From a virus, in UHGV virus genome UHGV-0351038: a stretch of 34,385 nucleotides of DNA. One strand, given 5' to 3'. A program made the position numbers and the translations under genes. Below the pieces are notes generated by a model that had not been told where the DNA came from, searched no databases, and saw nothing but the letters and a program-made list of their open reading frames with translations. Below, piece by piece: positions 3,207-15,101 of this stretch. Numbering within the stretch: position 1 is the first letter of the stretch; every line of letters begins with the position of its first letter.

Positions 3207-3513
3207 ACCCCGTCTCCCATTATCCGGAAGCTGACAACAATAAAAAAGCCACCAGTTAACTACTGATGGCTCTGATAACTCATGCAAGCGTCTCAGACGA
3301 TCCACTGACACTATCGGTGAGTTTAACGATACCTTCCATTTGACTGGCTCACTTTTTATGATGATGCCGGTGCATTTATCTCCAGCACCAGACTTTCTAT
3401 CTCAACGCCATACGTTGCATTTTTGGTAATATCCGTCAGCGTCAGTGCATTTAGTCCCACTGCCAGACTGTCTTTTATGGCCTGGAATGCCGGGCCAGTA
3501 CGATGACGTAGTA

Positions 3514-3717
3514 TCACTCCGGCTCAGTTGCACCGCTGACCACCACATCACCTTCTGCTGCAATCGCCTGCATCAGGGTATAAGGGGTTATGGCCACCGG
3601 ACTACCAAACGGCTGCCAGCCCTCTTTCAGTTTATGTGTCAGCTTTTCCGCAAGATCTGACGGCGGCGCCGCCCTGACAACATCATAGTGTTTAAATGCC
3701 ATGGTTCTTTCCACCAT
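3514..3717 (-). CDS. DUF1737-family small prophage protein
   Basis: 67 aa MVERTMAFKHYDVVRAAPPSDLAEKL...; recalled as a conserved small protein upstream of holins in lambdoid prophages. Confidence 0.55.
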   Translation of the reverse strand: MVERTMAFKHYDVVRAAPPSDLAEKLTHKLKEGWQPFGSPVAITPYTLMQAIAAEGDVVVSGATEPE

Positions 3718-3962
3718 CTGAAAAATAATTCTTTAAAATGCCTGACATGTAATACAGAAAAAAACACAAAACCATACCTTAAATAAAAACCTGATTATCA
3801 AGCAGATATGCATGGATAAACTACAAGACGAGATATAAACCACCCTGTATTTAAATAAACAATAAACAACATCAGAAAAATAATTCTGCTCTATGGTTTA
3901 ATTCAAAAATATCATTTATACTTTTCAGAACATCACCAGCAAGGCATAAACAAGGAAAGTAA

Positions 3963-4298
3963 ATGAAGTGGATTGTGATTGATACAGTTATCCAGCCATC
4001 ATGCGGAATATCTTTTTCAGTCATATGGAGTAAAATAAAATTAATAATCTGGTATCAATCGGATGCTTTCTTACCTCCTGAAAGTATATTTACACTGACT
4101 CACACAGGCATCATGCTCAATAACAAAGTGCTGCCTGTAACCATTTACAACGTAGTACCATTCAATAAAACATTCTGGAATTTAATCAAAAACAGCCAGG
4201 AATGCCCTACAAATACAGATAACGTATTGAATGAATGCTTTAATAACCGTTGCACTCTGCAAATATGTCCTTATGGACTAAAACAACAAAGTCCATAA
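3963..4298 (+). CDS. Hypothetical protein (111 aa) in AT-rich cargo segment
   Basis: ATG preceded by AAGGAAAG RBS; Cys-containing, no recognisable family; lies antisense to the late operon in a visibly AT-rich stretch. Confidence 0.3.
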
Positions 4299-4314
4299 GG
4301 AGTTTACTCACATC

Positions 4315-4354
4315 TGACAAAATCAATATAAACAGCCCCTCCGGAGAGGGGCTG
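4315..4354 (-). terminator. Intrinsic terminator-like hairpin (9-bp stem CAGCCCCTC/GAGGGGCTG, loop CGGA) followed by U-rich tract on minus strand
   Basis: Perfect 9-bp inverted repeat at 4333-4354; on the minus strand it is followed by TTTATATTGATTTT. Confidence 0.45.
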
Positions 4355-4745
4355 GAGAGTGGCGCTATGTGCCATTGCATGGTGCCGGGTGCCTCCCGGT
4401 GAATTCAGTACCAGCACCTGAATCCGCGATTATCCCATATACCTACTCGCTGATTGCCCCACCGCACAGGGGGATTCACCATGCCAGTTTCTTTTAACAA
4501 ACTCCCCGCAAACCAGACAACAGTCAACCGCCTGAATTGTGAAGTATTTAAAAATTTCTCCCGCTAACTGATACCCGGCTAACAGTCTGGCGTTTTCTTT
4601 TTCAGCAACGGGAAAGCAACAACCACCACACCCGCCACCAGCACACCGTCAGCCAGCACTGACATTATCCGGCTGCTGCAATGCCATTCACAAAAACAGT
4701 AAGCAATCACTTTTTACCGTAACAGGTGATAATCCAGATATGTAT

Positions 4746-5099
4746 CTACCCCAGATGAGTAATCCGAAGTTCATCCATACCACAGGTCCTGGCTATTCTG
4801 TTGTACTCCTGAACAAGAGCAAATAATTCTGAATTAGCAACCATGAACTCATCGCAAACCCTCTGTATAGCATCACTATTCAGAATAATAACGTCTCTTC
4901 CCGAAAGACGATCAGGAGTACAGAACAAAACTGTCAAACGGCTGAAGGCCTTTGCTCGTGCTGCATTGACTATATCAATACGCTGCCTAAGGATGAAACA
5001 CCCCGACGCCTCATCAATATTCACTCTACCCACACCATATGAATGATAAATATTTAATGCTGAAAAAACCATTAGACCGTATAACAAATATTCAATCAA
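4746..5099 (-). CDS. Hypothetical protein (117 aa; start uncertain, TTG at 5099 or ATG 27 nt downstream)
   Basis: ORF only; AT-rich; no family recognised. Confidence 0.25.
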   Translation of the reverse strand: MIEYLLYGLMVFSALNIYHSYGVGRVNIDEASGCFILRQRIDIVNAARAKAFSRLTVLFCTPDRLSGRDVIILNSDAIQRVCDEFMVANSELFALVQEYNRIARTCGMDELRITHLG

Positions 5100-5209
5100 T
5101 ACTTAACAGAACTTTTATTTTTGACAAACATATAATATTTTCAACAATATCCTGAGCCAGGTATATTTCAGTATAAGGCTCTGCCGGAAGGAATCTGGAA
5201 GAATGAATA

Positions 5210-5286
5210 TGGCGCGCTGTACTGGATTCGAACCAGTGACCGATTGCTTAGAAGGCAATTGCTCTGTCCGGCTGAGCTAACAACGC
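5210..5286 (-). tRNA. tRNA-Arg, anticodon UCU (phage argN/argO-like)
   Basis: Reverse complement folds as tRNA: acceptor GCGTTGT / ACAGCGC, anticodon loop CTTCTAA, T-arm GGTTCGAATCC, CCA encoded. Confidence 0.8.
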
Positions 5287-5387
5287 TGAATACCGATAAT
5301 GGACCGCCATCGGGGACCCGCCCCCCGCACCAACAACCCTGTTATCGTGTCGTCTGCTCTTCCTGATAAGCTAATGGCGGTTTGTGA

Positions 5388-5463
5388 TGGTGGCCCTTGC
5401 TGGATTTGAACCAGCGACCTGGCGATTATGAGTCGCTCGCTCTCACCACTGAGCTAAAGGGCC
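5388..5463 (-). tRNA. tRNA-Ile2-like, anticodon CAU (phage ileZ-like); CCA encoded
   Basis: Reverse complement identical to the tRNA at 60-132 and continues into an encoded CCA; lies downstream of Q as in lambdoid late regions. Confidence 0.8.
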
Positions 5464-5522
5464 GGGAGCAGAATAATAACGGTCCATAATTAATTCCGCA
5501 ATAAAAAACCCGCTCGGCGGCG
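5389..5522. repeat. Right copy of inverted repeat (tRNA-Ile + terminator-like hairpin), reverse complement of 1-134
   Basis: See left copy; manual base-by-base comparison. Confidence 0.85.
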
Positions 5523-5525
5523 GGT
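5501..5525 (-). terminator. tR'-like intrinsic terminator between Q and the tRNAs
   Basis: Minus-strand RNA CCCGCCGCCGAGCGGG followed by TTTTTT; about 80 bp downstream of the Q stop. Confidence 0.45.
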
Positions 5526-5606
5526 TGTAGAAACTCTTCTAACGTCAGGCATAAAACGCCCATCATTATGACGAATTTACCACAGATTCCGGAAAAATCA
5601 ACCTTG

Positions 5607-6428
5607 TTACCTAGTTACCTTTTTTAACTGCCGCTCAGCCCATGCTTCTTCAATATCAAACCGGGTCACCAGCGCATCATAGAATTTCTTAACTGTTTTT
5701 TCCCATGACGCGCGTGTTATCTGGTTTGTCACCTCGCATATAGCATTAAATGCCTCCGTTGATGGTAGTCTTTCATAGCCACGACCACCACAACGCTGGC
5801 AGTCTCTGATAACAGGCATACCACGTTTTACCGACTCTTCACGATGAATGGCGACACCACGCCCACGGCAATCCTTACAGGCGGTGGAAACCTCACCCTT
5901 TCCGCCACACTCCGGACAGGCAACTTTTACCACCTCCCTGACTTTTTTCCATTCTTCCCAGTAAGACGGATACACACCTTTCGTACACTTTGCCCATACC
6001 GGCGGCTTACCATCCGGATACTGGACCTTGTTTGTAAAAACTACGCTTTCAATAAATTTTTCCCCATAGCAACAAGGGCACTGCTTTTTACTCGCTGCGC
6101 TGCGGGCATAATCCTCAAAAGCGTACGAAGCCATAATGCGCATCACTAACGGTTTTATTTCTGCCGGAAGTTTTCTCAACGCCGCCACACGATCGCACCG
6201 ACTGAGTGCATAATCTGCCAGTAATTCTGTTGCCCGCGCCCTGTCATTCATACTGATGCCCATTTTCCCCAGGAACGCAGAAAACCCCATCTCAGCCCGA
6301 TTCTGTGTCATGCCCTGCGCGGCCATCACATCAGTGATACTCAGCGCATCTTTTGACGTTGAGGCCGATACATCGGTCAGGCCAGGGGATTTTGGGGAGT
6401 AGTATTTCGGTAAATCTTCCAGTTTCAT
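5607..6428 (-). CDS. Late-gene antiterminator Q (phage 82 / Qin QuuQ-like)
   Basis: 273 aa with multiple CxxC zinc-finger motifs (CPCCYGEKF, CPECGGKG, CKDCRGRG, CQRCGGRG); located between rusA and the tR'/tRNA/lysis region. Confidence 0.8.
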   Translation of the reverse strand: MKLEDLPKYYSPKSPGLTDVSASTSKDALSITDVMAAQGMTQNRAEMGFSAFLGKMGISMNDRARATELLADYALSRCDRVAALRKLPAEIKPLVMRIMASYAFEDYARSAASKKQCPCCYGEKFIESVVFTNKVQYPDGKPPVWAKCTKGVYPSYWEEWKKVREVVKVACPECGGKGEVSTACKDCRGRGVAIHREESVKRGMPVIRDCQRCGGRGYERLPSTEAFNAICEVTNQITRASWEKTVKKFYDALVTRFDIEEAWAERQLKKVTR

Positions 6429-6799
6429 TTTTTGACCTGCTCTTCATGCATTATGGGGTAAATCTTCACCCCCATACGTCCACCAGATACTGGCTGACCA
6501 CGAACGATATTGATTTCATCAAACTGCTCATCGTCCATTAACACTCCCGCATGCGTCAGCGCATCCAGCGGTGCTTTCAGGATATTGTCCAGGTCGCGAC
6601 GACGCTTATCCGGTGGCTCTGCAATCACCTTTATCGCCAGCCTTCCGGACAGGCTTAATTTCAGCCGCTGCTGGCGAACAATAAGCGCCACAGCCCGGCG
6701 ATAACGCTTTCCCTCCTCCGAGATAAAATATGTGCTGCCACGGCGTCGCCAGTAAGTGTTCACCGTCGGCGGGTAAGGTAAAACCAAATCTATGAGCAT
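6425..6799 (-). CDS. rusA: RusA-family Holliday junction resolvase
   Basis: 124 aa MLIDLVLPYPPTVNTYW...DLDNILKAPLDALTHAGVLMDDEQ, matching recalled RusA catalytic-region features; 4-bp overlap with Q. Confidence 0.85.
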   Translation of the reverse strand: MLIDLVLPYPPTVNTYWRRRGSTYFISEEGKRYRRAVALIVRQQRLKLSLSGRLAIKVIAEPPDKRRRDLDNILKAPLDALTHAGVLMDDEQFDEINIVRGQPVSGGRMGVKIYPIMHEEQVKK

Positions 6800-6811
6800 C
6801 AGTCACCTCTT

Positions 6812-7861
6812 TTACCCAAGCACGCCAGTTGCAAAGGCGTGATCAAGAAAACGAAAAATTAAATCAACCTGAGAACCATGCTTTTGTTCGAACGCCAGAG
6901 GATCCGCATGAAGCTCGTTGTGATGCTCCCGACACAGCGGTAGCGTGAAAATATCGTGAGATTTTGTCCCCATTCCGCCCTGACCATGACCAATCAGGTG
7001 ATGGGGATCGTCGGCTGGCTTACCACAACACGCACACGGCTGTGTCTTCACCCAGCGTGTGTATTTCTCGTTAACCCAGCGGCGACGTTTAGGTCGTTTC
7101 ATGAAAGATTCCGGAGACTCAGGATCAACGGCAATGCTGACCACCGTCTTTTCCTGTGGTGGGTTCTGTTGCTGGTGGGCGTGAGGCAGCGGCGCAATAT
7201 TTTTTGTGCGCTGTTTCAGTATGCTGGTGGCTGTCTGCTCTCCCGGTATGATGTCGCTCTCGCGGTAAAGCGAGCGGATTTTCTCCGCCGGTAATCCCAG
7301 TGAGCGGCGTAATACAGCCTCCGGTAGTGCGTCCGCTACCTGATTGCAGACCGCCCACCAGGATAATTCAGCCAGAGATAATTCACGCTCCTGCGTACCG
7401 CTTATTGCGTGACCGATGACGTCAATCATCCATGCTGACAGGTTTTGATGAGCAAGTTGCTCGAGTGATTCGGATGTCTGGTCACGCAGCTGGTTGTCGC
7501 AGTGCCAGCACAACACCATTGCGCCGGTACCATAACGGTGAATGACGGTTTCGCTGTGATGATAATCGCCGTGTGGCCACTGGCAGGATTTAACATGGCG
7601 CAGTAACCAGTCAGACAATGCGCCAGCGCCACCAGCAGCACGAATCACTCGTTCGTCGCTGAAAAATGGCAGTAATGATTTATCCTCCGCCAGCGGCTGG
7701 CGAACGGCAGGAACGACCCCGGACGGCAGATTACGCATGGTTTTCGGTTCCGGCTCCACCAGTACCCGGGTATTGTGGAATACCGGCATGGATTCACTGC
7801 CCGGCTTAACGATCACCAGCCCGAGTTCCGGTACCAGAACAGGTCGAAGTAATACCCGCAC
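6812..7861 (-). CDS. DUF968-family protein (YdfU-like) with C-terminal HNH-like zinc-binding motif
   Basis: 349 aa; C-terminus CACCGKPADDPHHLIGHGQGG...CREHHNELH; start is GTG at 7861, so N-terminus uncertain. Confidence 0.65.
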   Translation of the reverse strand: MRVLLRPVLVPELGLVIVKPGSESMPVFHNTRVLVEPEPKTMRNLPSGVVPAVRQPLAEDKSLLPFFSDERVIRAAGGAGALSDWLLRHVKSCQWPHGDYHHSETVIHRYGTGAMVLCWHCDNQLRDQTSESLEQLAHQNLSAWMIDVIGHAISGTQERELSLAELSWWAVCNQVADALPEAVLRRSLGLPAEKIRSLYRESDIIPGEQTATSILKQRTKNIAPLPHAHQQQNPPQEKTVVSIAVDPESPESFMKRPKRRRWVNEKYTRWVKTQPCACCGKPADDPHHLIGHGQGGMGTKSHDIFTLPLCREHHNELHADPLAFEQKHGSQVDLIFRFLDHAFATGVLG

Positions 7862-7862
7862 G

Positions 7863-8141
7863 TTACCTCCAGATGCGTTGCTGGAATGTGCGGGACAGAC
7901 GCGGTGGGCGTTCGGAGTAAGGAAGCCTGACGGAGATTATCCAGTGACGGTAGTCGAGGCTAAGGGCTTTTTTAACCTCGCATCCGCGCCTGCGGTAACA
8001 CTGAATGAGCCATTCGGCCTGTTCTTCAGTGCATGGGGGATGCTGGTACCAGTCTGACTTAAATGCGTGAGAATACCGCTCGTGCGTGTGGGCAAGAACG
8101 GTCGAATTATCATGTTTGTAATATTTTGCGTTGCGTGCCAT
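7863..8141 (-). CDS. Hypothetical prophage protein (92 aa)
   Basis: ATG start, abuts DUF968 gene; no family recognised. Confidence 0.45.
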   Translation of the reverse strand: MARNAKYYKHDNSTVLAHTHERYSHAFKSDWYQHPPCTEEQAEWLIQCYRRRGCEVKKALSLDYRHWIISVRLPYSERPPRLSRTFQQRIWR

Positions 8142-8675: not shown

Positions 8676-8831
8676 TTACTCCTCAGGTTCGTAAGCTGTG
8701 AAGACAGCGACCTCCGTCTGGCCGGTTCGGATTCGTACCTCGCAGAGGTCTTTCCTCGTTACCAGTGCCGTCACTATGACGGTTAAACAGATGACGATCA
8801 GGGCGATTAACATCGCCTTTTGCTGCTTCAT
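8676..8831 (-). CDS. hok: Hok/Gef-family type I toxin (51 aa); the longer overlapping frame (to 8888) is mok-like
   Basis: MKQQKAMLIALIVICLTVIVTALVTRKDLCEVRIRTGQTEVAVFTAYEPEE: single TM helix and conserved C-terminal pattern of Hok toxins; track ORF 8676-8888 extends upstream as expected for mok. Confidence 0.8.
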   Translation of the reverse strand: MKQQKAMLIALIVICLTVIVTALVTRKDLCEVRIRTGQTEVAVFTAYEPEE

Positions 8832-9295
8832 AGCCTGCTTCTCCTTGCCTTTCGGCACGTAAGAGGCTAACCTACATGTGTCTAGCATGAAATTGGCCTC
8901 AGATTAATGTTAAGCGTCTTGCAGGACGCGTAATGTTAACTGGGGCTTTTCTCTATCTGCCGTTGGTGTTATGCCCGAGGCAGATAGCCTCAAGCACCCG
9001 CAGCCATTCTACTTAACTACCGTTACCTCGCCAATGTGAAATCAGTCAGAAAGGCGATCCATAAGAACAATAGCAAGACAATAAATCGCCATTACAGCCG
9101 TAATAGCCAGCGCACATTTGAGAACCAGCACCACAACCTCCTGTATTGGACGTACACCAGTCCTGATGAATATGAGGCTGTCTCGTCAGTGATTCAATAC
9201 AACTATTGGGTATAGTTTCTCTGATTTTTTCTGTGGAAATGGGGCTCAACCACTAGTCATTTAATACGCAAAGTCCGATACAAGCTAACCTTCTA

Positions 9296-14558: not shown

Positions 14559-15101
14559 ATTAATAACTCTCTACTGTAAGGGTATTAAAATGCTATCACA
14601 GACTCTCGCTGTAGGGGTATAGCCGAGACCACCGAGCCTGAAGTGGTAAAAAGACAGGCACACAACACGAAAGCGCACGGCGAGGCTGTTAGTTCATAAA
14701 TGGTCTGTCGTTAAATTTTCGTCGACCGTGCGCTTCCGGTTGTGGCAATCCGCGAAATGGCGCGGCGGTAAGTATGGCGGGGTTATTCCTTCCCCGTTGA
14801 GGACACCGGGTTGTCAGGTTGACCATACGCTTAAGTGACAACCCCGCTGCAGCGCCCTCTGTTATCAATTTTCTGGTGACGTTTGGCGGTATCAGTTTTA
14901 CTCCGTGACTGCTCTGCCGCCCTTTTTAAAGTGAATTTTGTGATGCGGTGAATGCGGCTGAGCGCACGCGGAACAGTTAAAACCGAAAACTGTGTTATGG
15001 GTGGATTCTCTGTATCCGGCGTTAATTGTTAACTGGTTAACGTCACCTGGAGGCACCAGGCACCGCATCAACAAAGTTCATTTGTAAAAATGGAGATAAT
15101 T

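Follow-up and report, generated by a model that had tools for sequence, protein, structure and literature searches.

A likely cargo region in the late operon of an Escherichia coli lambdoid prophage: iraL, STnc100 and a putative small gene in the stx slot

The RssB anti-adaptors IraL of Escherichia coli CFT073 and IraM of K-12, the Shiga-toxin (Stx2) phages and the STnc100 small RNAs (sRNAs) are the closest described systems to the locus considered here, an AT-rich segment at positions 3718-5209 of the virus genome UHGV-0351038 (34,385 nucleotides, referred to below as the window). The segment is very probably the late-operon cargo region of an E. coli lambdoid prophage, and it is composed of three modules, each exchangeable on its own: the iraL cassette (module 1, 3704-4327), a DUF3927 gene together with STnc100 (module 2, 4324-4710) and a gene of 92 or 117 codons (module 3, 4746-5099). 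The main component is already known, as iraL has been characterised and the STnc100 family catalogued. Only mildly new are the exact anatomy of two cargo slots and a conserved gene in the stx slot that RefSeq leaves unannotated in all 12 sampled records.

IraL has been studied in some depth. Deletion of iraL lowers the log-phase level of sigma-S (RpoS) in CFT073 and Shigella sonnei, and without the gene sigma-S has a half-life of about 2.5 min instead of about 5 min (Hryckowian et al., 2014, mBio, PMC4045071). A clone carrying iraL with its native promoter complements the mutant and raises sigma-S in K-12, and upstream of the transcript start this clone contains no more than 100 bp (PMC4045071). 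The 5' end of the mRNA was mapped in uninduced log-phase CFT073, where it derives from a sigma-70-type promoter, and the protein interacts solely with RssB's N-terminal domain (PMC4045071). Carriage of iraL varies among E. coli pathotypes (PMC4045071). In contrast, the K-12 anti-adaptor IraM (YcgW/ElbA) is induced by Mg2+ starvation. Like IraL, it belongs to the NCBIfam family NF007393, and the PmrD-like N-terminal domain is probably conserved. The STnc100 sRNAs are related to the PasD prophage sRNAs (preprint 10.64898/2026.05.13.724894). Eleven copies are present in EDL933, where they are transcribed without induction and one has been verified by Northern blot (PMC5331693), and a copy located 75 nt downstream of stx2B has also been published (PMC12370729).

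Base composition sets the segment apart from its surroundings. Its G+C content is 39.2%, compared with 49.1% for the whole window, which makes it the minimum among all 1492-nt windows, and values of 41% or less are reached by just 0.7% of them. Internally the composition is patchy, with 32.1% G+C at 3718-4327, 55.9% at 4328-4513 and 38.1% at 4711-5209. An initial annotation, made from the letters alone, had described AT-rich DNA of low coding density between tRNA-Arg and the DUF1737/holin genes. The location and the composition are borne out. The low coding density is not, as about 68% of the segment is covered when the sRNA and small genes are included, namely iraL (336 nt), the DUF3927 gene (132 nt), STnc100 (190 nt), neither of the last two having been part of that annotation, and a 117-codon open reading frame (ORF; 354 nt). 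The features of the segment and its left flank are as follows.

3356-3717, minus strand: remnant of a nanS-p esterase gene, left flank of the cassette (Pfam DUF1737; phrog_143)
3704-4327, plus strand: iraL moron cassette of 624 bp with promoter, coding sequence and 3' hairpin, flanked by the STnc100 terminator and the nanS-p/DUF1737 start
3894-3930, plus strand: iraL promoter, with the -10 element TATACT at 3917-3922 and the transcript start at 3930
3963-4298, plus strand: coding sequence of iraL, 111 residues, RssB anti-adaptor IraL (NCBIfam and identity with CFT073 IraL)
4268-4301, plus strand: 12-bp hairpin over the last codons and stop of iraL (RNA fold)
4324-4513, minus strand: STnc100 sRNA, 190 nt (Rfam RF02076)
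4333-4354, minus strand: intrinsic terminator of STnc100 (terminator scan and Rfam alignment)
4579-4710, minus strand: gene for a DUF3927/TciB-like small hydrophobic protein of 43 residues (Pfam PF13064; RefSeq WP_000562553.1)
4746-5099, minus strand: late-strand gene of 92 or 117 codons, maximal ORF of 117 codons from TTG (phrog_2873)

The iraL cassette

Judged by its sequence, the 111-residue ORF is the already characterised gene iraL. Its product scores 162 bits against the NCBIfam model NF007393 (IraM; cut-off 121), with residues 1-110 aligned to profile positions 1-113 of 114, and it shares 111 of 111 residues with CFT073 IraL (WP_000871291.1). The DNA over 3718-5209 is 98.9% identical to that of CFT073 by direct comparison. 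The same accession is the annotation in a genome 100% identical over the segment and is also present in the potB prophage of CFT073. The initial annotation had given this ORF a ribosome-binding site and an orientation antisense to the late operon. Both are correct, with AAGGA located 7-8 nt upstream of the ATG. An intact protein of identical sequence is encoded in both E. coli and E. albertii, and the E. albertii gene lies in the same context. At the DNA level, iraL was found in 1,446 of 5,426 complete E. coli genomes. When contigs were scanned with the single protein, matches came from E. coli, Shigella and E. albertii only, in a scan that is blind to distant relatives such as Salmonella RssC. 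Neither IraL nor the 92-residue and DUF3927 proteins matched the PADLOC defence models at E <= 1.

The CFT073 prophage shares the context of the window, including Q, the tRNAs, the DUF3927 gene, STnc100, iraL, a DUF1737 remnant and the holin gene. Unlike the window, it carries an IS200 that separates Q from the tRNAs, and its middle tRNA-Arg is intact. The relationship with K-12 iraM is more distant. IraL is 62% identical to IraM, its residues 1-78 give a gap-free alignment with the IraM fragment that was crystallised (PDB 8twd, E 9e-32), and it most likely shares the PmrD-like fold. Both genes are located within or adjoining prophage DNA, but the K-12 locus is beside e14/icd and outside any late operon. 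Similarity between the loci is confined to the coding region, at 70.6% nucleotide identity, while the promoter and flanks are unmatched. IraL also possesses four additional C-terminal residues, and among the cluster III contacts of IraM it keeps I61 and Y62, while H63 and I64 are replaced by N and V (residues from PMC10844676). Shared ancestry of the K-12 iraM locus was considered and rejected; just the coding region and a DUF1398 gene match, and common flanks were not found.

The protein encoded in the window would be expected to bind RssB and to stabilise RpoS in log phase, as inferred from its identity to CFT073 IraL. Recognition of iraL would explain what the prophage gives its host, namely altered RpoS in exponentially growing cells.

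The 5' end of the CFT073 iraL mRNA, obtained by rapid amplification of cDNA ends, has the sequence ACATCACCAGCAAGGCATAAACAAGGAAA and is located exactly at 3930 in the window. Compared with CFT073, the window promoter has one C fewer in the spacer between the -35 and -10 elements, and both spacer variants are natural. The other changes are G>A at -1 and ACC>AGT just before the ATG. Upstream of iraL is a 21-nt direct repeat, CA[C/A]CATC[T/A]GAAAAATAATTCT, with copies at 3712-3732 and 3867-3887 that are 155 bp apart and identical at 19 of 21 positions. One copy is at the left edge of the cassette, and the repeat may be due to chance in AT-rich DNA.

At the 3' end, the 12-bp hairpin at 4268-4301 encodes the C-terminal extension QQSP that is not present in K-12 IraM. 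Because its U-tract is weak, this hairpin was not flagged by the terminator scan, and it is possibly a terminator or a 3' stabiliser of the iraL mRNA. The STnc100 hairpin at 4333-4354 may also act as a convergent terminator for iraL, although it is followed by no U-tract on the plus strand, where the U-tracts of both hairpins are poor.

The cassette is very probably a true moron that was horizontally acquired. This conclusion follows from its absence from related phages, its own mapped promoter and its deviant composition, and it upholds the moron insertion suggested by the initial annotation. Specifically, the 32.1% G+C of the cassette is the lowest of any 610-nt window in the 34 kb. In the Stx2 phage Lyz12581Vzw and in JLK-2012, STnc100 is followed by nanS-p within about 230 and 150 bp, respectively, and iraL is missing. 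Their homology to the window breaks at 3703 and 3695 and starts again at 4328 and 4368, so that the comparison with related phages called for in the initial annotation bounds the cassette at 3695-3703 and 4328-4368.

Classical lambdoid morons, such as bor and lom of lambda and those of HK97, are recognised by the definition of Hendrix and Juhala. The iraL cassette resembles them in adding a gene that has a promoter and a hairpin of its own and a deviant composition, that separates genes which are neighbours in relatives, and that would be expressed from the prophage. It is unlike them in being inside the late operon and antisense to it, with a 3' end that abuts the terminator of a convergent sRNA.

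STnc100 and the two cargo slots

The sRNA on the late strand is a full-length member of its family. It scores 130.5 bits against the Rfam model (gathering score 47) over model positions 1-206 of 206, and both published STnc_100 quantitative PCR primers match the window exactly (primers from PMC12370729). The initial annotation had reported a strong hairpin terminator at 4333-4354. The hairpin itself is real, with a perfect 9-bp stem containing 7 G-C pairs, a 4-nt loop and a T-rich tail, TTTATATTGA, on the minus strand only. It is not, however, a free-standing element. Because the stem aligns with the terminal stem of the RF02076 model and the T-rich tail is confined to the minus strand, the hairpin is the 3' end of STnc100, whose terminator runs from 4354 to 4333 and is followed by TTTATATT. 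The hairpin is kept in the Stx2 phage that lacks iraL, and the 116-nt stretch at 4260-4375 folds at z = -6.3 relative to shuffled sequences.

Further copies of STnc100 were found in L004, vB_EcoS-640R1 (L005), Lyz12581Vzw (L006), JLK-2012 (L007) and the metagenomic contig L008, and the copy in L006 is 75 nt downstream of stx2B. The full-length match, the terminal hairpin and the position in a prophage late region are all as in the STnc100/PasD family, and the copy in the window has nothing distinctive. The partial genome of vB_EcoS-640R1, an entry from a phage collection, carries two copies, at 3525-3713 and 3989-4182, around an extra small ORF beside iraL. Promoter consensus matches that could serve STnc100 or the 92/117-codon gene were no commoner than in shuffled sequence. 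A RefSeq feature at 4369-4494 on the plus strand, labelled 'hypothetical protein, incomplete', was treated as spurious, being antisense inside STnc100 and without any family match.

Directly upstream of STnc100 is the DUF3927 gene. Its product, a small membrane protein, scores 95.6 bits against PF13064 (gathering 25) and matches the 'TciB-like' phrog_1470 at E 8e-13. STnc100 and DUF3927 occur in 2,778 of the 5,426 complete E. coli genomes.

Pairwise comparisons of the window with related phages, including L006, L007 and mEp460, reveal a mosaic with two cargo slots. Slot 1 extends from tRNA-Arg to STnc100 and contains stx2A and stx2B in the Stx2 phage. There, homology to the window stops at 5202, 8 nt past the tRNA, and restarts at 4542, about 30 nt before STnc100. 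In the window, slot 1 (4543-5201) is instead filled by the 92/117-codon gene and the DUF3927 gene. Slot 2 begins at the STnc100 terminator, ends at the nanS-p start codon and holds the 624-bp iraL cassette. The functional phage mEp460 shares 4376-8000 with the window at 97% identity, but its gene content left of this stretch differs. The 3' part of STnc100 therefore contains three independent breakpoints, at 4328, 4368 and 4376.

Overall, the Stx2 phages, such as Lyz12581Vzw, have in common with the window the series of Q, tR', tRNA-Ile2 and tRNA-Arg, cargo, STnc100, nanS-p and holin, as well as conserved breakpoints around the cargo. The window differs in having no toxin in the slot, iraL in the second slot and on the opposite strand, and a nanS-p gene reduced to a remnant. 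The comparison of the segment with the position of Shiga-toxin genes, made in the initial annotation, thus holds for the slot between tRNA-Arg and STnc100, which matches that of stx2AB, whereas iraL is one slot further on. As that annotation had also supposed, no toxin gene is present. None of the ORFs in 3718-5209 matches a toxin family in Pfam, NCBIfam or PHROGs, and the stx2AB genes of L006 have no counterpart in the window in pairwise comparison.

The nanS-p remnant on the left flank consists of two pieces, an N-terminal DUF1737 part from a start at 3702 or 3717 to 3514 and a 53-residue C-terminal part at 3356-3517. These match positions 1-58 and 582-632 of the 634-residue phrog_143 (NanS-p sialate esterase). 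This points to an internal deletion in nanS-p, and RefSeq marks the gene as incomplete. The same remnant accompanies iraL in CFT073, vB_EcoS-640R1 and E. albertii.

The 92/117-codon gene in slot 1

The second ORF described in the initial annotation, of 117 codons with a non-ATG start, corresponds to the TTG ORF at 4746-5099 on the minus strand. Its conserved core spans 92 codons at 4749-5024, beginning with a GTG at 5024 (VNIDE); the alternative starts are ATG 5072 and TTG 5099. The 117-codon ORF is most likely a real gene under purifying selection. Against phrog_2873 the protein scores 234 bits over profile positions 1-108 of 108. Twenty relatives were found among 1.84 billion representative proteins, with 32-64% identity and lengths of 91-122 residues. 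They include proteins of 91-95 residues from E. coli and Citrobacter, and down to 32% identity the length of about 92 residues is kept and motifs are shared. Additionally, paralogous alleles of 91-92 residues with an ATG start are carried by NCBI as hypothetical proteins.

The pattern of substitution points in the same direction. Relative to a homologue that is 57% identical, from the metagenomic contig L008, the proportions of synonymous (pS) and nonsynonymous (pN) differences are 0.58 and 0.25, giving a dN/dS of 0.27; the same method gives 0.155 for iraL relative to iraM. The differences are distributed over the three codon positions as 35/34/55, with the third position enriched, and the other two frames hold 4-11 stops. 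An AlphaFold2 model of the 92-residue protein has a predicted local distance difference test (pLDDT) score of 90 and the order helix, beta-hairpin, helix, so that a helical hairpin is predicted. The protein has no Pfam or NCBIfam match, and a profile search of the Protein Data Bank (PDB) sequences gave no match.

The region encoding this gene is present in 1,186 of the 5,426 complete E. coli genomes, and in about one in five E. coli genomes the exact stx slot is filled by the 92-residue and DUF3927 proteins. In a set of 50,697 phage records, the family was found in mEp460 only, and a scan with the single protein returned two Citrobacter-type viral contigs. In one of these (L015), a homologue occupies the corresponding late-strand interval, with the tRNAs on one side and the lysis genes on the other, and lies upstream of a DUF3927-like ORF, as read from translations. 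In the metagenomic contig L008 (164-889), the 57%-identical homologue is directly downstream of a gene for an AraC-type regulator and upstream of STnc100. The anatomy of the two slots and the unannotated gene do not change current understanding, and they could help prophage annotation.

Expression, alternative readings and genomic setting

In a lysogen, transcription of iraL would begin at 3930 from a sigma-70-type promoter of its own and would run opposite to a silent late operon whose pR' transcripts would end at tR'. IraL would then bind the N-terminal receiver domain of RssB and prevent the hand-over of RpoS to ClpXP, so that RpoS would remain stable in exponential growth. After induction, polymerase modified by Q would pass tR', the tRNAs, slot 1 and the STnc100 terminator, and this read-through would proceed antisense across iraL before reaching the lysis genes. 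The iraL gene would accordingly be active in lysogeny, with modules 2 and 3 serving late or constitutive functions. It is conceivable, though unlikely, that the convergent layout is a switch coupling the general stress response of the host to the state of the prophage and that, separately, the 92-residue and DUF3927 proteins have a late-phase or lysogenic-conversion function. With such a switch, iraL may keep RpoS raised in growing lysogens until Q-driven antisense transcription shuts it off as the late genes fire.

The initial annotation had supposed that the cargo is expressed with the late genes, and it is improbable that the segment, including the 111-residue ORF, is a late-expressed moron made with the lysis genes after induction, as is Shiga toxin. 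The cargo shares with stx2AB its place downstream of Q, tR' and the late tRNAs, and transcription from pR' could include the DUF3927 gene, STnc100 and the 92/117-codon gene, which all lie on the late strand. In contrast, iraL is on the opposite strand, so that late transcription would yield antisense RNA and not iraL mRNA; its 5' end was mapped in uninduced log-phase CFT073, and the clone with 100 bp upstream of the transcript start suffices to raise sigma-S in K-12 (PMC4045071). The supposition is not borne out for this gene, and iraL is probably a lysogenic-conversion gene rather than a late-expressed one. Still less probable is that the protein behaves like K-12 IraM, remaining silent in growth, responding to PhoP and Mg2+ starvation and binding both domains of RssB. 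Membership of one family, 62% identity and the probable sharing of the PmrD-like fold would fit such behaviour (PMC10844676). However, the protein is identical to the log-phase-acting IraL that binds only RssB's N-terminal domain, its likeness to K-12 iraM ends with the coding region, two of the four cluster III contact residues are kept, and inspection by eye saw no PhoP box or PhoP-box-like direct repeat upstream of 3930. The reading of the segment as a cargo region in which iraL acts in the lysogen does face several points that weigh against it. The -35 element of iraL matches the consensus poorly, and the shorter spacer, together with the changes before the ATG, means that the strength of the window promoter could differ from that of the tested allele. 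Furthermore, silencing of iraL by antisense late transcription is pure inference.

The remaining points of this kind concern the 92/117-codon gene, and they lend a small probability to the view that its frame is fortuitous and that 4711-5209 is degenerate non-coding spacer or a remnant. The start of the gene is non-ATG or ambiguous and lacks a clear Shine-Dalgarno sequence, no RefSeq feature lies under it in 12 of 12 sampled genome records, family matches in Pfam and NCBIfam are wanting, and a single isolated phage (mEp460) carries it. Of the searches proposed in the initial annotation, the sequence search identified the 111-residue ORF as IraL, and Foldseek with the 92-residue model against PDB and BFVD returned only non-significant matches to generic antiparallel coiled coils (prefoldin beta, EmrA and others, E >= 0.1). 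A fortuitous frame is nevertheless difficult to reconcile with homologues that keep about 92 residues and shared motifs down to 32% identity, ATG-start paralogues annotated by NCBI, the dN/dS of 0.27, the enrichment of differences at third positions and the pLDDT of 90. Finally, it is extremely unlikely that the whole segment is the inert decay of a defective prophage. In its favour are the internal deletion in the neighbouring nanS-p and the degenerate middle tRNA-Arg, but both E. coli and E. albertii have an intact and identical IraL, the genes for lysis are intact too, and functional phage mEp460 carries modules 2 and 3, while vB_EcoS-640R1 carries iraL and two STnc100 copies.

The late operon of the prophage is on the minus strand, and the features upstream of the segment, with the spacer at its right edge, are as follows.

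5607-6428: Q antiterminator (Pfam Antiterm)
5526-5507, minus strand: tR'-like terminator (terminator scan)
5388-5463, minus strand: tRNA-Met/Ile2
5210-5286, minus strand: tRNA-Arg(tct)
5100-5209, no strand: AT-rich spacer (31.8% G+C) from the 117-codon ORF to tRNA-Arg, right edge of the stx-equivalent slot

Within the spacer, homology to the Stx2 phage L006 starts again at 5202, and promoter-like hexamers are no more frequent than in shuffled sequence. Downstream of the segment, the minus-strand order is the DUF1737 ORF (3514-3717), a P21-type holin, a DUF1327 ORF, lysozyme and Rz, and the lysis genes are intact by their Pfam matches. The middle tRNA-Arg(tcg) that lies between tRNA-Ile2 and tRNA-Arg(tct) in CFT073 and the Stx2 phages is degenerate in the window, at 5287-5387 on the minus strand. 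Its acceptor ends can be aligned, its centre is scrambled, and ARAGORN makes no call.

Several observations concern the rest of the window. Positions 1-134 are a perfect 134-bp inverted repeat, being the reverse complement of 5389-5522 in the tR'/tRNA-Met(Ile2) region. The junction at about 132-134 was found in 0 of 5,426 complete E. coli genomes, and the inverted copy reflects either an uncommon rearrangement or a fold-back of the assembly at a contig end. A sitABCD-like metal ABC transporter (20044-23493, plus strand) is located between a phage integrase (18262-19557, plus strand) and lambdoid tail genes (23889-31554, minus strand), the latter comprising J, lom, a tail fibre and a short ORF that matches Peptidase_S74 weakly and below threshold. 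The end of the tail region is therefore contiguous with the integrase, an arrangement also seen in tandem prophages or in the vegetative map of a phage. The early region contains Rfam matches to the DicF sRNA (14871-14922, plus strand) and to the sok antitoxin RNA (8826-8999, minus strand), and the latter adjoins hokD in a genome that is about 99% identical over that stretch.

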